Below, in pieces: positions 26,001 through 32,000 of a stretch of 32,000 nucleotides of DNA. The notes under the pieces were generated by a model that saw only the letters and a program-made list of their open reading frames with translations, did no database searches and was not told the DNA's origin. The DNA lies in contig NZ_CP042911.1 of NCBI RefSeq assembly GCF_008065095.1, positions 4,740,001 through 4,772,000 of the forward strand. The letters are read 5' to 3'. A program made the translations under genes and the position numbers. This DNA is from Gemmata obscuriglobus (lineage in GTDB: Bacteria; Planctomycetota; Planctomycetia; Gemmatales; Gemmataceae). The stretch's first letter is position 1. Each line of letters opens with the position of its first letter.

Positions 26001-27406
26001 CGATGAACCCGCCGACCGGTGGCACGGGCAACGAGAAGGGTGACGAGAGCAACGGAGAAAAGCCCGACCCGAACAACGCCGGCAAGCCCCAGGGCGGTTC
26101 CGGCAACGGCGCGCCCAAGGACAAGAAGCCCAGCGAGCAGGAACTCAAGGAGTTTGACGAAGCCGCGAAGAACCTCACTTCGCCCGACGAGCAGAAGAAG
26201 GCCGACGCCCGCAACAAGCTCGATAAGACGATGGGTCAGGAGAAGCGCAAGGAACTGGAGAAGGTGGCCAACGACCGCCAGTCGCCGGACGAGAACACCC
26301 GCAAGGACGCCGAGCGTAAGTTCGATGACTTCAAGAAGGAAGCCCAGAACGGCCCCGCCGACAAGAAGGGCGGTACCGACGGCAAGAAGAACGAGACCGG
26401 TGGTAAGCCCGGCGACGCGCCGAAACTCGACGAGAAGCAGAAGAAGGAAATGGCCGACGCCATGAAGGACCTTCAGTCCGGCAACGAGCAGCAGAAGGCC
26501 GACGCCCGCAAGAAGCTCGATAAAACCTTTGGTGAGCAGGCTCGCAAGGAGGCCGAGCAGTTCATGAACGACCTGAAGTCCGACGACAAGGACAAGCAGG
26601 CCGCCGCGCAGCAGAAGTTTGACGACTTCAAGAAGGAGATGGAGAAGCGCGCCGCGGAAGAAAACGCCAAGAAAAACGGCGAAAGCGGCAAGGGCAAAGA
26701 GCCCATCGACGATCCAAACGCGCAAAAGGACAAAGAAAGTGCGAAGGGTCAGGAGCTCTCGAAAGAGGAGCTCGACGCCCTCACGAAGAAGGCCCAGGAT
26801 CTTCAATCGAAGGACCAGAAGACCCGCGAGCAGGCCGAGAAGGAACTGGACGACAAGATCGGCAAAGAGAACCGCGAGCGCCTCCAGGAGAAGATGAAGG
26901 AGCAGCAACCCGGTACGCCCGAGCAGGAGCAGAAGCTGCGCGAACAGGTGGAGCAGCACGCGAAGAACCACGCCAACCAACCGCAAGGCACGCCCGGTAA
27001 CAGACCCGCTGGCAGCGTGCCGACCAAGGAGGCGATGGAGGAGGACGCCCGGAACCGGCTCAAGACCGCGGAGCTGCAACTGGACCAGTTCGAGAAGAAG
27101 CGGTACGACGAGGCGTTCAAGCGCAAACAGGGCTTCACCGACGCCGAGTACGAGAAGTTCCTCCGCGGCTACGAGAAGCACGTCGAGAAGCTGCGCGACG
27201 ACGTGAACAAGGGCTCCGCAAGCGGCGAGAAGGCGCCGCCGAAGGGACCGGCCGAACCCGACCGGCCGATCACGGCGGGCAGCGGCGGGAAGGTCGAAAG
27301 CCGCCCCGGTATGTCGTCCGGCACGGCGGGCACCGTCACCACCGAACCGCCGGGCTTCGAGAACCTGCGGCGCAAGTTCGAGAAGCTCCTCAACGAGAAG
27401 AAGTGA
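23009..27406 (+). CDS. Giant (1466 aa) membrane-anchored protein: 2 N-terminal TM helices, Ig-like/beta-rich region, ~500-aa K/E/P/Q/G/N disordered region, then 3 x ~100-aa helical repeats; DUF4175/TIGR02302-like architecture
   Basis: ATG 23009 is preceded by GGAGA. The TM helices are LALGALVLVAFVLAYATAVILL and LSLLGFIGALAAITYLTIV. The beta-rich part carries DDFGVDTITLKM and EYWLEATDN motifs. Low complexity runs from ~24650 to ~26120. A strong terminator follows the stop. A TATAAT hexamer lies at 22930-22935. Confidence 0.8.
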   Translation: MAAVLEPKDPTEAAAKLGSQVDEQLAQATTRIRAHDLALGALVLVAFVLAYATAVILLDKFIDLPQWLRQLSLLGFIGALAAITYLTIVTPLRKKINPLYAAKQVESTIDDAKNSVTGYVDAQQKGALNATVKAALARRAAKSVAEADVNKAVDHRSLLYLGGAAIALALTLVVLFFVFRPSQFGSLLTRAFVPFISTQVGTRTQIKLTKPEPAEPTITEGQTVTVAVHIGGKVPSTDSPERVRLLIRHNPADPNYIEVPMVEAETSRDFELRVPNHHVQNGFWYKVAAGDDQTDEYKVTVRSLPLFTHFQATYESPKYLRRKAETISSPLIQGYRGTTVTLTAQTNHDVRDGAMVIEPGGTVVPGTTTADDPKALQFRFKLKESGRYRLTYTTTDGEKSAEPFVSTIVVQNDAAPTLVIDKPEEEEVTVPANGQLAIDGKVGDDFGVDTITLKMRLTGATARDLLERPFLYGKSKSFKREKDGTYPTDVEYKGSVNFAELTKAPAGVPFEAKPDMVIEYWLEATDNCTEPKPNVGRSAVKRVRLAPPVVEEPKKQEQKQQNNERKNEEQKHNDDQQQKLEQERRDQPQNGGQQQQNGEQQPKEGEPQKGNDATPKRDGNDPMGANPPPKEKGQPNKPEGKQDGSGGKADGTPDKGSNEGNPMPKGAGEKSDNPSKGMNDAQPNPMQPNDPNGTGTGGMNQAETAPPPKTPDEKDVQNKAEQLKNAIEEENKSGGSVKPNEAPSAQERTDPGRAKPQPKNDSGNTSGMAEQKPEQKPDPMQPEKGAAASGKPEGNPEKSPEPSTTKPDGSKQPDPMSGSEPKNGAPPEPRNEPIENAPGTEKAQPQAGQSAPKEPKEANPKQDQNAGGSAKPATLKDADKPPMGAPNPGEKSDPAADAGSKAKPAPDPARGAEKPADPKGRTAPPEAKGETKPEGGEAKPDKAPPAGESKGMPPKEDAMNPGAGMGQPEAKPEPDGANQPQKPNGTRAAETKPQKPDAMNPPTGGTGNEKGDESNGEKPDPNNAGKPQGGSGNGAPKDKKPSEQELKEFDEAAKNLTSPDEQKKADARNKLDKTMGQEKRKELEKVANDRQSPDENTRKDAERKFDDFKKEAQNGPADKKGGTDGKKNETGGKPGDAPKLDEKQKKEMADAMKDLQSGNEQQKADARKKLDKTFGEQARKEAEQFMNDLKSDDKDKQAAAQQKFDDFKKEMEKRAAEENAKKNGESGKGKEPIDDPNAQKDKESAKGQELSKEELDALTKKAQDLQSKDQKTREQAEKELDDKIGKENRERLQEKMKEQQPGTPEQEQKLREQVEQHAKNHANQPQGTPGNRPAGSVPTKEAMEEDARNRLKTAELQLDQFEKKRYDEAFKRKQGFTDAEYEKFLRGYEKHVEKLRDDVNKGSASGEKAPPKGPAEPDRPITAGSGGKVESRPGMSSGTAGTVTTEPPGFENLRRKFEKLLNEKK
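26125..26960 (+). repeat. Three tandem ~297-nt (99-codon) intragenic repeats
   Basis: The protein units are L(T/Q)S.(D/N)(E/Q)..K..A..KLDK..G...RKE.E...(ND)...D......KFDDFKKE. At nucleotide level AAGGCCGACGCCCGCAACAAGCTCGATAAGAC (26198) compares with AAGGCCGACGCCCGCAAGAAGCTCGATAAAAC (26495), an offset of 297 nt. The third unit, around 26790, is more diverged. Confidence 0.75.
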
Positions 27407-27425: not shown

Positions 27426-27468
27426 AAAACCCCGCGGCGCATTGAGCGCCGCGGGGTTTTTGTTCTTT
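27426..27468 (+). terminator. Rho-independent terminator of the giant gene
   Basis: AAAACCCCGCGGCGC-ATTGA-GCGCCGCGGGGTTTT forms a 15-bp perfect stem, followed by TGTTCTTT. It starts 20 nt after the stop codon. Confidence 0.9.
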
Positions 27469-27527
27469 CGGTCCCCCGTTCCCCTACGCTAACTAGGGCT
27501 CTTCACACCGGCTTCACGGGTTCCGTC

Positions 27528-29147: not shown

Positions 29148-29246
29148 CAGCGCGTCCCCGAACCATAGGCCCCATCAGGGGAACATCAATCCGCGAGAGG
29201 CGGTGCCCCGTCTCGTCTGTGTCGCCTCTCTCGCGGGATGTCTCAG

Positions 29247-29831
29247 ATGAAGTTGCTCACAGTCGCAGTCACACTGGTCGCGTTCGCCGTGACTGGTCGG
29301 GCCGAGGATCAGAAGGCCCAACCGCCGGTCACACTCGAACTGGTGGCCAAAAGCAACGAGTACAAGTTCGACGGCAACGGGAAGGCGCCCGCGGAGTTCA
29401 AAAAGTACCTCGAAGAGATCGCACAGGCCCAGAAGGACGGCAAGTTGGCCCGGCCCCCTCAACCGCCGGCGGTCGAGCTGGTGCTCAAATTCACCAACAC
29501 CACCAAGAACGACACCACGATTTACGTTGGCGGCGATTCAAATTCGTACACGTTCGATCTCACCGGCGGCAGCGGATCTGTCGCGGTCGGTAGCGGGCGC
29601 GCGTTCACGGAAGAGTTCCGGTTCCCCAAAGCGGTCACCCTGGCCCCGGGCAAGTTTCACGAGATCAGGGTCAAACAACTCGCCGACGGGCACCGCGGCG
29701 CGTCCCGCTACGTGTACTGGACCGGCCCCGGCGAGTACAAGCTGAGCGCCAAATACGTTCTCGCGAACGCCGACGGCAGCAAGGGCGCCGAACTCGCGAG
29801 CGAGTCCATCACGATCACCGTCGGCAAGTGA
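29247..29831 (+). CDS. Secreted protein of unknown function, paralog A
   Basis: The signal peptide is MKLLTVAVTLVAFAVTGRA|ED. The mature ~170 aa show a beta-rich pattern. The conserved ATG is shared with paralog B; an alternative ATG is at 29238. Confidence 0.75.
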   Translation: MKLLTVAVTLVAFAVTGRAEDQKAQPPVTLELVAKSNEYKFDGNGKAPAEFKKYLEEIAQAQKDGKLARPPQPPAVELVLKFTNTTKNDTTIYVGGDSNSYTFDLTGGSGSVAVGSGRAFTEEFRFPKAVTLAPGKFHEIRVKQLADGHRGASRYVYWTGPGEYKLSAKYVLANADGSKGAELASESITITVGK

Positions 29832-29924
29832 CCGGTCAGCGCCGCCATCTTCGCGGCGCGCCCGCAATCCGCACCCACAACGGCGTCGTCTGGTCTGTGT
29901 CGCCTTCCCCGTGGAGTGCCGCAA

Positions 29925-30506
29925 ATGAAACTGCTCACAGTGACCGTTGCGCTGATCGCCTTCGCCGTGTCGGCTTCGGGAGAGGACAAGAAGGCCGAAC
30001 CCCCGGTCAAGCTGAAACTGGTCGCCAAAACCGACAAGTACAAGTTCGGCAGCGGCACAGTTCCCGCGGAGTTCAAAAAGTACCTCGAAGAGATTGCGCA
30101 GGCCCAGAAGGACGGCAAGCCGGCCCAACCACCCAAACCGCCGGCGGTCGATTTGGTGCTGGAGATCGTCAACACGAGCAAGGACGAGGTGACGATTTAC
30201 GTGGGCGGGGACGCCAACACCTGGACCTTCGACCTGACCGGCGGCGACGGCACAGTGAACCTCGGCAGCGGGCTGGCGATGACGCTGGAGTTCCGGCTAC
30301 CGAAGGCGGTGACGCTGCCCCCGGGTAAGTCTCACGAGATCCCGGTGAAGCGGTTGTCCGACGGCGCCCGCGGGGCGGGCCGGTACGTGTACTGGACCGG
30401 CCCCGGCGAGTACAAACTGAGCGCCAAGTACACGATTTCTGATAAGGACGGTGAGAAGGCCTACGAACTGAAGAGCGAGCCGGTGAAGATCACCGTCGAG
30501 AAGTAG
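29925..30506 (+). CDS. Secreted protein of unknown function, paralog B
   Basis: The signal peptide is MKLLTVTVALIAFAVSASG|ED. GGAG lies 8 nt upstream of ATG 29925. By eye it is about 60-65% identical to paralog A across the full length. Confidence 0.75.
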   Translation: MKLLTVTVALIAFAVSASGEDKKAEPPVKLKLVAKTDKYKFGSGTVPAEFKKYLEEIAQAQKDGKPAQPPKPPAVDLVLEIVNTSKDEVTIYVGGDANTWTFDLTGGDGTVNLGSGLAMTLEFRLPKAVTLPPGKSHEIPVKRLSDGARGAGRYVYWTGPGEYKLSAKYTISDKDGEKAYELKSEPVKITVEK

Positions 30507-30613: not shown

Positions 30614-31177
30614 ATGAGTACACAAGTGATGCCCTACGCGACCCTCGCGGACCTGATGAAAGTCGAAGGGAAGGCCGAACTCATCAACGGGAGGATCGTG
30701 ACCTTCATGCCCAGCGGATTTTTGCCCAGCCGCGTCGCGCGCAAGATTGTTCGCGCTCTTGAGGACTACGCAACGAGTGGCGGTCACGGTGAACCGGTTG
30801 CCGACCCGACGGGGTACGCCTTCGACCCTCCATTACCATCGGGTCGTCAATCTCTTTGCCCAGACGCATCGTTTTACACCGGCGCACTTCCCACGAACCC
30901 GATGGGGTTCATCGAAGGTTTCCCGGTCTTTGCGGTCGAGGTGCGGAGCGAGAGCGACTACGGCCCGAAGGCCGATCGCGAGTACGCGGACAAACGCGCC
31001 GATTACTTCTCAGCGGGCACGCGGGTGGTCTGGGATGTCGATCCGGTCGCACAGACGGTCACGAGTTACTCCGCCACCGCGCCGACAACATCGACGACGT
31101 TCCGACGCGGAAGCACGGCCGACGCCGAACCTGCGGTACCCGGATGGCGTCTGTCGGTTGACGCGCTATTCACTTGA
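30614..31177 (+). CDS. Uma2-family (DUF820) putative endonuclease
   Basis: KAELINGRIV..MP, PDASFY, FPVFAVEVRSESD...ADYFSAGTRVVWDVDP match the PD-(D/E)xK-like Uma2 pattern. A GAGGAGGG Shine-Dalgarno sequence precedes the ATG. Confidence 0.8.
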   Translation: MSTQVMPYATLADLMKVEGKAELINGRIVTFMPSGFLPSRVARKIVRALEDYATSGGHGEPVADPTGYAFDPPLPSGRQSLCPDASFYTGALPTNPMGFIEGFPVFAVEVRSESDYGPKADREYADKRADYFSAGTRVVWDVDPVAQTVTSYSATAPTTSTTFRRGSTADAEPAVPGWRLSVDALFT

Positions 31178-31228
31178 TTCTTGCCGGAAGTGGTGTAGTT
31201 TTACTGCGATCTGAAGAGGAATAGAACT

Positions 31229-31303
31229 GTGTCGAACGTCTCCGCTATCCTGGTTACCGCGAGCGCCGTAATTGGCGCCGTCGTGATTATTACCACCGGG
31301 TAA
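31229..31303 (+). CDS. Candidate leader peptide (24 aa, Ile/Val/Thr-rich) upstream of cimA; alternatively a hydrophobic micro-protein
   Basis: AAGAGGA (31214-31220) lies 8 nt upstream of GTG 31229. Translation is (M)SNVSAILVTASAVIGAVVIITTG with stop TAA at 31301-31303. This ORF is not in the supplied track because it is too short. Confidence 0.4.
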   Translation: MSNVSAILVTASAVIGAVVIITTG

Positions 31304-31334
31304 GCGGGGTCCGCCGAAGGTTCAGCCTTACGCA

Positions 31335-31364
31335 CCCCGGAGTTCCCTCCGGGGTTTTTCTTTT
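31335..31364 (+). terminator. Rho-independent terminator / attenuator hairpin immediately upstream of cimA
   Basis: CCCCGGAG-TTCC-CTCCGGGG forms an 8-bp perfect stem, followed by TTTTTCTTTT. It ends 22 nt before the cimA ATG. Confidence 0.75.
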
Positions 31365-31385
31365 CTGCACTCTCCCGAGTCCGCC

Positions 31386-32000
31386 ATGAGCCGCGTCAGC
31401 ATCTACGACACCACCCTCCGGGATGGGAGTCAGGGCGAAGGGGTCAACTTCTCGCTCCAGGACAAGCTGCTCCTCACGAAGCGGCTGGACGAGATCGGCG
31501 TGGAGTACATCGAGGGCGGCTACCCGCTCTCCAACCCGAAGGACTTCGAGTACTTCCAGGCGGTGCGCGGGCTGGACCTCAAACACGCCAAGGTCTGTGC
31601 GTTCGGCATGACCCGGCGAAAGAACGCGCCCGCGGAAACCGACACGTGCCTCAAGGCCCTGCTGGACGCGCACACGCCGGTCGTGACGATCGTGGGCAAA
31701 ACGTGGGACTTCCACGTCACGGAGGTGCTCGGCACCACGCTCGACGAGAACTGCGCGATGATCGCGGACTCCGTTCAATACTGCAAAGCGCAGGGCCGGG
31801 AGGTGTTCTACGACGCCGAGCACTTCTTCGACGGCTATCGCGCGAACCCGGAGTACGCACTCCGCACGCTCAAAGCCGCCGCGGGCGCCGGTGCGGCGGC
31901 GGTGATCCTTTGCGACACCAACGGGGGCACCATGCCGGAGCGCGTCGCCGAGGTGGTGGCGATCGTGACGCGGGCGTTGCCGTGTGAGGTCGGCATCCAC
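31386..32000 (+). CDS. cimA: Citramalate synthase / 2-isopropylmalate synthase family protein, CimA-type N-terminus; 3' end lies outside the window
   Basis: Hand translation of frame 3 from ATG 31386 gives MSRVSIYDTTLRDGSQGEGVNFSLQDKLLLTKRLDEIGVEYIEGGYPLSNPKDFEYF...ILCDTNGGTMP...VGIH. It is open to the window end (205 codons). It is absent from the ORF track only because no stop is present. The listed antisense ORF 31290..32000 is its shadow. Confidence 0.85.
   Translation, partial: MSRVSIYDTTLRDGSQGEGVNFSLQDKLLLTKRLDEIGVEYIEGGYPLSNPKDFEYFQAVRGLDLKHAKVCAFGMTRRKNAPAETDTCLKALLDAHTPVVTIVGKTWDFHVTEVLGTTLDENCAMIADSVQYCKAQGREVFYDAEHFFDGYRANPEYALRTLKAAAGAGAAAVILCDTNGGTMPERVAEVVAIVTRALPCEVGIH

Follow-up and report, generated by a model that had tools for sequence, protein, structure and literature searches.

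Introduction

The described systems closest to the element studied here are the leader-peptide attenuators of branched-chain amino acid biosynthesis. The element, a short open reading frame (ORF) followed by an intrinsic terminator, lies directly upstream of the citramalate synthase gene cimA of Gemmata obscuriglobus, in a stretch of 32,000 nucleotides (nt) of contig NZ_CP042911.1 (positions 4,740,001 to 4,772,000) that we call the window and to which unprefixed coordinates refer. It resembles the enterobacterial ilvL (ilvGMEDA) and ivbL (ilvBN) leaders in having a short ORF with a branched-chain codon run and a terminator whose 5′ arm can be captured by an antiterminator, in a predicted outcome that is decided by ribosome position, and in the control of a branched-chain biosynthetic gene. 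It differs from them in that neither sequence or Rfam-level similarity nor a 1:2 hairpin is detectable, in that the regulated gene is one that enterobacteria lack, and in that the leader stop codon lies in or next to the antiterminator, so that the terminating ribosome appears to act as the anti-antiterminator; moreover, its codon run is dominated by Ile and depleted in Leu, unlike that of ilvL, which mixes Ile, Val and Leu. A first-pass annotation of this DNA had described the layout as a copy of ilvL/ivbL logic, a statement that holds as a functional likeness and extends neither to sequence homology nor to a detectable 1:2 hairpin.

The closest two-stem layout is that of the Corynebacterium ilvB upstream open reading frame (uORF), or ilvB-II motif, with a P1 antiterminator and a P2 terminator (PMC11109978). 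Actinobacterial ilvB uORFs are enriched in Ile, Leu and Val codons (PMC11109978; PMC1262725); unlike the cimA leader, they belong to another phylum and another gene, and their ORFs overlap the terminator hairpin. T-box leaders of leuA and ilv genes, such as the Leu T-box upstream of Geobacter leuA, also place a terminator/antiterminator decision before a gene of the LeuA/CimA enzyme family (PMC2700814), but a T-box senses uncharged tRNA directly and has no ORF, unlike the cimA leader. An Ile T-box on Geobacter cimA, considered as a further comparison, could not be confirmed (PMC2700814 describes the Leu T-box on leuA), and that comparison was dropped.

According to a 2010 survey, leader-peptide systems had been shown only in Proteobacteria and Actinobacteria, to which the survey itself added Firmicutes (PMC2965389). 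In the open-access literature we found no report of leader-peptide attenuation for Planctomycetota, in agreement with the first-pass annotation, which knew of none in that phylum, and none for cimA; nor could a published RNA-level regulator of cimA itself be verified. An Rfam search of 31000-31600 at E-values up to 10 returned no T-box, riboswitch or known leader (Thr_leader, Leu_leader, His_leader, Trp_leader), the best matches being rnk_pseudo (27.4 bits, gathering threshold 55) and anti-hemB (21.5 bits, gathering threshold 49.5), both of which align to the terminator hairpin only. At gathering thresholds, the same search of 20 other cimA loci gave no T-box, riboswitch or leader, only terminator look-alikes and one tRNA.

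From the sequence elements, their conservation, the codon enrichment and the geometry of two mutually exclusive structures, all described below, we conclude that the element is very probably an isoleucine-responsive, and perhaps also valine-responsive, leader-peptide transcription attenuator of cimA. The mechanism is a textbook one; the phylum, the regulated gene and the family are new.

Results

A leader ORF and terminator conserved upstream of cimA

The gap between the Uma2-family gene (ORF end at 31177) and the cimA start codon (ATG at 31386) is 208 nt long and contains the Shine-Dalgarno sequence, the leader ORF and the terminator (Table 1). The encoded peptide, MSNVSAILVTASAVIGAVVIITTG, has 5 Val, 4 Ile and 1 Leu among its 24 residues, that is, 10 branched-chain residues, plus 3 Thr, and the same AAGAG(G/A) motif stands 7-8 nt ahead of a GTG start in L003, L004 and L006 (locus numbers denote the relatives introduced below). 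In the window, the terminator hairpin is ACCCCGGAG-TTCC-CTCCGGGGT (9 bp, -17.2 kcal/mol), beginning 30 nt past the leader stop codon, and its U tract, TTTTCTTTTCT, ends about 20 nt ahead of cimA. The 191-nt region folds better than 200 of 200 dinucleotide shuffles (z = -3.2). These coordinates bear out the first-pass annotation for the gap, the Shine-Dalgarno sequence, the GTG start and the composition of the 24-codon ORF, as well as for a perfect hairpin with a U tract; its 31-nt spacing from ORF to hairpin is in fact 30 nt, and its distance of 22 nt from terminator to cimA varies with the end point assigned to the U tract. Its naming of the downstream gene is likewise secure, since the full-length cimA in contig L082, which is identical to the window, scores 695 bits on the TIGR00977 citramalate synthase model (cutoff 450). 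The Uma2 protein and the entire leader are also identical to those of G. obscuriglobus UQM 2246 (GCA_000171775.1). In the threonine-independent (citramalate) route to 2-oxobutyrate and isoleucine, CimA catalyses the first step, and isoleucine is the only end product of the citramalate branch.

Table 1. Features of the cimA leader and its surroundings in the window
Feature	Positions	Strand	Basis
Shine-Dalgarno-like AAGAGGA, 8 nt 5′ of GTG 31229	31214-31220	+	read from sequence
Leader ORF, 24 codons plus TAA (31301-31303), 82 nt upstream of cimA	31229-31303	+	ORF translation
Predicted in-ORF hairpin CGCGAGCGCCGTAATTGGCGCCGTCG, -13.2 kcal/mol, with UGAUUAUU directly 3′	31258-31283	+	predicted fold
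Additional GTA ATT pair in leader ORF	31268-31273	+	codon count
Main candidate regulatory codon run GTC GTG ATT ATT (Val18 Val19 Ile20 Ile21)	31280-31291	+	codon rarity, family Ile enrichment
Predicted antiterminator hairpin, CGGGGU (31305-31310) paired with ACCCCG (31334-31339) and enclosing an inner helix	31305-31339	+	nascent-RNA fold
Intrinsic terminator, 9-bp GC-rich hairpin (31334-31355) plus U tract (31356-31366)	31334-31366	+	hairpin scan, fold
cimA (citramalate synthase), 5′ part, proposed regulated gene	31386-32000	+	TIGR00977 at 2e-84 on fragment
Promoter-like element, -35-like TTGATT (31174-31179), 16-nt spacer, -10-like TAGTTT (31196-31201)	31174-31201	+	alignment with relatives
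Uma2-family gene (putative restriction endonuclease-like)	30614-31177	+	Pfam Uma2
Antisense ORF of 44 codons, reading ...PVVIITTAPI...	31201-31335	-	ORF list

For comparison we assembled 80 loci that encode the closest CimA relatives, one per species and nearly all from Planctomycetota, which together with the window give 81 upstream regions. The leader layout was defined as a short, stop-delimited ORF in which some stretch of 8 residues contains at least 4 Ile/Val, its stop codon, a spacer of usually 20-45 nt, a U-tract hairpin with a folding energy of -11 kcal/mol or lower, and then cimA. The first-pass annotation had tied its reading to two features, conservation of the mini-ORF and terminator before cimA in relatives and an RNA structure in competition with the terminator. 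The first is present in 42 of the 81 regions, spanning Gemmatales, Isosphaerales, Planctomycetales, Pirellulales and Phycisphaerae. The ORFs of L003, L006 and L007 are homologous to that of the window, their peptides ending ...AVIGVVVVITTG (...VVVVITTG), ...VAIIATVVVITTG (...TVVVITTG) and ...ATVVVVITTD, respectively. Further examples are the endings ...IRIEIVIITGVS (L015), ...GIIGVGIVIIRVG (L048), ...ASIIAIAIIITYPM (L037) and ...TPIIIESIIITSPPTR (L038), and the peptide MIIADIIVVIIPHGG of L046.

As a control, 894 terminator-like hairpins were collected from other parts of the window and of the 80 loci, counting both strands. Ile/Val scores of 5 or more (of 8) were reached by 28 of 81 cimA upstream regions versus 5 of the controls (0.56%), and scores of 6 or more, 6 being the score of the window leader, by 19 of 81 versus a single control (0.1%). 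That single control is in fact a cimA leader, that of L025, moved away from its gene by a 480-nt insertion: at L025:2530-3000, about 480 nt with inverted-repeat (repetitive extragenic palindromic-like, REP-like) sequences, e.g. CCTCCTCACCCCGTCCCTCTCCTCCAGAGGAGGAGAGGGTGG, separate the leader terminator from cimA. The upstream neighbour, by contrast, varies. In L003, nadB and a secreted-protein gene are present without Uma2, and the leader is kept before cimA; because the leader stays with cimA despite a differing upstream gene, the element belongs to cimA and not to the gene upstream.

A covariance model (R1) seeded with 10 relatives and built without the window gave the same picture. In the window, its best match in the 32 kb is full-length (model positions 1-128 of 128) at 31250-31364, with 48.8 bits and an E-value of 3.6e-11, which like all R1 E-values is rough owing to shortened calibration. 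Across 520 kb of loci, 39 of 43 matches lie directly upstream of cimA on the cimA strand, 38 of them in the 80 loci besides that of the window; the remainder are 3 terminator look-alikes and one match before a verrucomicrobial aspartokinase-cimA operon. This last match (L073:1559-1670, from a metagenome-assembled genome of Verrucomicrobiia; 28.9 bits) is upstream of the aspartokinase gene that precedes cimA (start 2992), and there a short ORF ending ...MNSKRGKVVKTIIVTP is followed by the terminator ACCCTCGGTTGACCATCGAGGGT and a T tract. The L073 leader apparently combines codons for Lys, Val, Thr and Ile, and its sequence suggests that related attenuators exist outside Planctomycetota.

Within the leader ORFs of L001, L002, L004, L005, L011, L012, L013 and L034 we noted the motif GCGCAGGGAGTGCGC (peptide AQGVR), which shows no synonymous variation across Gemmatales and Isosphaerales and forms a hairpin of 4-5 bp with GGGAG as its loop; at this place the window and L003 carry a different hairpin.

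Isoleucine as the predicted signal

The codons of the window leader are atypical of their surroundings. Three of its four Ile codons are ATT and one Val codon is GTA, against 13% ATT among Ile codons and 3.8% GTA among Val codons in the long ORFs of the window with high GC content at third codon positions, and against 8 ATC and no ATT in the visible part of cimA; the first-pass annotation had already pointed to this departure from the usual ATC and GTC/GTG. The same holds for the family, in which ATT makes up 62% of Ile codons in leaders versus 21% in cimA.

To compare residues, the last 25 or fewer residues of the 42 leaders were tallied against CimA. Ile accounts for 18.1% of leader residues versus 4.8% in CimA (3.8-fold enriched), Val for 13.8% versus 9.3%, Thr for 5.7% versus 5.3%, and Leu for 3.6% versus 8.6%, and II or III occurs in 30 of the 42 leaders (counted from the listed peptides). 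Selection of leaders on Ile plus Val inflates both of these, yet it does not account for the excess of Ile over Val or for the depletion of Leu. By these tallies the signal would be primarily isoleucine, perhaps also valine. Because Ile is enriched, Leu depleted and Thr not enriched, "Ile-type" fits the family better than the "ilv-type" of the first-pass annotation, whose Ile run is borne out across the family, with a modest part for Val and none for Leu or Thr. The TT at the peptide end is specific to the Gemmata clade, and its two Thr codons are probably not regulatory. The leader peptide of Escherichia coli thrL also mixes Ile and Thr codons and ends ...ITITTGNGAG, which is superficially like the ...VVIITTG of the Gemmata clade, although the latter gives no match to the Rfam Thr_leader model.

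A predicted antiterminator that covaries and competes with the terminator

The second feature, a structure in competition with the terminator, was found as well. In the window, the antiterminator and terminator have 31334-31339 in common. When the nascent RNA was folded over the stretch that starts 9 nt ahead of the stop-codon end and runs up to the loop of the terminator, the 31305-31339 hairpin dominated the structure, whose energy of -19.3 kcal/mol is comparable to the -17.2 kcal/mol of the terminator. In constraint folding, the hairpin formed in the unmasked nascent transcript; when 31271-31301 was masked, as for a ribosome on the Ile codons, 31305-31310 paired with 31334-31339; when 31286-31316 was masked instead, as for a ribosome at the stop codon, the antiterminator was blocked and the terminator arm was free.

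Across the relatives, the 5′ arm of the terminator has its complement in a segment that overlaps the leader stop codon or closely follows it, and the two change together. These stop-codon segments and arms are CTTCGGGGT and ACCCCGAAG in L006, CTCCGGGG and CCCCGGAG in L007, GCTTCAGGGC and GCCCTGAAGC in L002, ccTGAgg and CCTCAGG in L017, L022 and L033, gTAGggc and GCCCTAC in L037, GGGTAGGGCC and GGCCCTGCCC in L046, and CGGGCCT and AGGCCCG in L064; in the loci with ccTGAgg and gTAGggc, the stop codon is inside the pairing itself. The mean duplex energy of the segment with its own arm was -14.7 kcal/mol, compared with -11.4 kcal/mol for the arms of other loci (a mean this low in 0 of 5000 permutations; given the relatedness of the loci, this and the shuffle figures for the family are not clean probabilities) and -6.2 kcal/mol for a control segment 70 nt upstream. 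In nascent-RNA folds, at least 6 nt of the terminator arm were sequestered in all 42 loci, the sequestered fraction of the arm being 0.78 versus 0.52 with dinucleotide-shuffled spacers (Wilcoxon p = 4.5e-13).

Pair counts were made on a model-based alignment (A4) that was not fitted to the antiterminator helix. There, 78.8% of antiterminator cells pair versus 33-57% when the partner is slid by 1-3 columns, and 27 cells are changed on both sides versus 10.2 expected (1 of 500 shuffles); for the terminator helix, 95.7% of cells are paired and 84 are changed on both sides, values that 0 of 500 shuffles reach. Two other alignments were set aside for this purpose, a MAFFT alignment of the stop-to-terminator segment (A2), in which the GGGG core was split, and one anchored on the predicted duplex, which was fitted to the structure.

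The 5′ strand of the antiterminator extends, in the median, from 4 nt ahead of the stop-codon end to 7 nt beyond it, and it begins a median of 16 nt 3′ of the last Ile/Val run. This spacing fits a ribosome footprint: a ribosome paused on the run would leave the strand just exposed, and one on the stop codon would cover it. The design seems to be one of two hairpins, in which the terminating ribosome would prevent antitermination in place of a 1:2 hairpin.

Transcription of the leader would begin a few nt upstream of the Shine-Dalgarno sequence. The promoter-like element of the window aligns with TTGAC-N16/17-TAnnnT in L003, L004 and L005, and TTGAC-N17-19-TAnnnT was found 5′ of 29 of the 42 leaders; it is from this alignment with relatives that the promoter is provisionally assigned. 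In L012, L013, L017, L022, L026, L034 and L076, the first in-frame start is 6-9 nt after the -10-like hexamer of TTGAC-N17-19-TAnnnT, and these seven leader peptides may be translated from leaderless transcripts; the Gemmata clade, by contrast, has a 5′ untranslated region of 20-30 nt with AAGAG(G/A).

Under the proposed mechanism, a ribosome would translate the 24-codon leader while RNA polymerase proceeds to the terminator. With charged tRNA-Ile plentiful, the ribosome would reach the TAA at 31301-31303 and its footprint would cover CGGGGU at 31305-31310; the terminator arm ACCCCGGAG would then be free to pair with CUCCGGGGU, and transcription would stop at the U tract before cimA. With tRNA-Ile scarce, the ribosome would stall on GTC GTG ATT ATT (31280-31291), about 13 nt upstream of the CGGGGU segment, which would be exposed and would capture the terminator 5′ arm in the 31305-31339 hairpin, so that no terminator forms and cimA is transcribed. 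Translation of the ORF, stalling, the efficiency of termination and the physiological response are all predictions of this scheme. The in-ORF hairpin may have a pausing or synchronising role. In L006, L015, L052, L054, L057, L058 and L076, too, a stable hairpin stands directly before (U)GAUUAUU, which corresponds to the ATT ATT codons; by analogy, hairpin plus U-rich tract resembles a transcriptional pause site and could synchronise polymerase and ribosome, a role that could account for the preference for ATT over ATC.

Contrary evidence and alternative explanations

Several observations weigh against attenuation by the leader peptide. At equilibrium, the full-length window RNA always adopts the terminator, and the switch must therefore be kinetic, as in other attenuators. 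The window antiterminator alone amounts to 6 bp plus the inner helix, with a duplex z of -0.87 versus shuffles, which is not significant, and 38% of shuffled window spacers sequester the terminator arm equally well. The first-pass annotation had called its candidate pairing weak: the pairing is present, as part of the longer 31305-31339 hairpin, and in the window by itself it is indistinguishable from chance; the case for the antiterminator is one of homology and family-level covariation. A conserved 1:2 pairing was not detected across the family (pairing of the antiterminator strand with sequence 5′ of it, 0.63 observed versus 0.61 shuffled, p = 0.23), so that an untranslated leader is predicted to read through; the minimum-free-energy fold of the window leader pairs 31240-31246 with 31303-31309. 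A sigma-70 consensus scan found 0 promoter sites, the promoter-like element of the window being too weak for it, and the -10-like hexamer of that element is poor. Two relatives, L001 (2826-2950) and L005, carry decayed leaders, indicating that the element is dispensable in some relatives: L001 has kept the ORF frame and a hairpin and lost the Ile/Val run (…VRAGVRVGNTG) and the U tract, the L005 leader ends …SVVPNLFAI with a different hairpin, and the attenuator thus seems to have been lost in some Gemmataceae. To these points must be added the relatedness of the loci, the selection of the leaders on Ile/Val content and, finally, the finding that in Streptomyces coelicolor mutating candidate regulatory codons of a similar-looking ilvB leader left regulation unchanged (PMC1262725).

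That precedent, which includes a Streptomyces leuA leader equally unresponsive to codon mutations (PMC1262725), favours the best-surviving alternative: a conditional terminator whose state depends on a protein, small molecule, tRNA or the overall rate of translation and not on codon-specific stalling, with the Ile/Val ORF only loading ribosomes or arising as a by-product of RNA constraints such as a U-rich pause element. Constraints of this kind are suggested by nucleotide-level conservation inside the ORF (GCGCAGGGAGTGCGC in 8 loci, and the hairpin with UGAUUAUU in 8 loci), and the lack of a detectable 1:2 hairpin agrees with the same view. We nevertheless consider it unlikely, in that the enriched residue is specifically the pathway's end product, Ile, with Leu depleted, and that very divergent sequences have kept the reading frame of the run and a stop codon at or in the antiterminator. 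In addition, the distance from run to antiterminator matches a ribosome footprint, and no riboswitch, T-box or protein-binding leader in Rfam matches the region.

Much less probable is a reading of the ORF as the gene for a small hydrophobic membrane micro-protein that has its own function, the hairpin being simply its terminator. The peptide is indeed hydrophobic and nearly long enough for a membrane span, and it has a Shine-Dalgarno sequence and a start codon, but beyond the Ile/Val run neither sequence nor length is conserved (15-58 codons, with unrelated N-termini), and the element directly precedes cimA in every case, in the same orientation. Rare codons occupy positions at which a genuine protein-coding gene would favour ATC, the stop codon sits within a stretch complementary to the arm of the terminator, and the exact peptide has no match among known proteins: a look-up of four leader peptides, including MSNVSAILVTASAVIGAVVIITTG, in a collection of 15 billion proteins found none of them. 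Least credible of all, and contradicted by the comparative data, is an ordinary Uma2 terminator with a chance intergenic ORF, for although the hairpin is downstream of Uma2 on the same strand and spurious ORFs are abundant in high-GC genomes, it lies 157 nt beyond the Uma2 stop, the same leader and terminator precede cimA without Uma2 (L003) and in distant orders, and Ile/Val-rich ORFs are 40 to 200 times rarer before control terminators.

With these alternatives weighed, the attenuator reading first put forward in the first-pass annotation is supported by conservation in 42 of 81 regions together with a competing structure that covaries with the terminator arm at the family level. More tentative, and in our estimate somewhat short of an even chance, is the wider proposal of a Planctomycetota-wide, Ile-specific attenuator family with a verrucomicrobial relative, a two-hairpin design with the stop codon in the antiterminator, and some members that are leaderless.

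Implications for Planctomycetota

Attenuation at cimA would extend leader-peptide attenuation to Planctomycetota, and the Ile-specific run is independent evidence, at the level of regulation, for a role of these TIGR00977 genes in isoleucine synthesis via the citramalate route in this phylum. For G. obscuriglobus, it has been proposed that a membrane encloses the nucleoid and that transcription and translation are separated in space (Gottshall et al. 2014, as cited in PMC5394234 and PMC5287468). An attenuator of this kind works only with a ribosome closely trailing the polymerase, and the locus is therefore a defined genetic test of coupling. If the reading is true, a functional attenuator would be genetic proof of tight transcription-translation coupling in this species, with the ribosome within a few tens of nt of the polymerase, and would provide a ready-made in vivo reporter of coupling. 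With about 40 sequences and covariation in both helices, the family is ready for RNA-family curation and would improve the annotation of planctomycete intergenic regions.

Other features of the locus

We rejected the minus-strand ORF in Table 1 as a coincidence. Its start falls within the terminator arm, no conserved counterpart exists, and at this GC content long antisense shadow ORFs are commonplace. The shared VVIITT reading comes from GTCGTGATTATTACCACC, which at the codon level is quasi-palindromic.

The Uma2 gene sits between a pair of tandem paralogs and the cimA leader, and its TGA stop (31175-31177) falls within the -35-like TTGATT of the presumed leader promoter. In L004, a reading frame with a C-terminal sequence similar to that of the Uma2 ORF directly precedes the leader, and L003 has no Uma2 there. 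The paralogs (29238-29831 and 29916-30506; 197 and 196 aa, 69% identical) lie between nadB and Uma2 and have signal-peptide-like N-termini and no Pfam match; in L003 there is only one copy (2175-2756).

A canonical intrinsic terminator, AAAACCCCGCGGCGC-ATTGA-GCGCCGCGGGGTTTT TGTTCTTTC, is present at 27426-27470 after a 1504-aa gene that ends at 27406, which shows that hairpin and U-tract terminators serve ordinary gene ends in this genome too. An A tract on its 5′ side makes bidirectional action possible.

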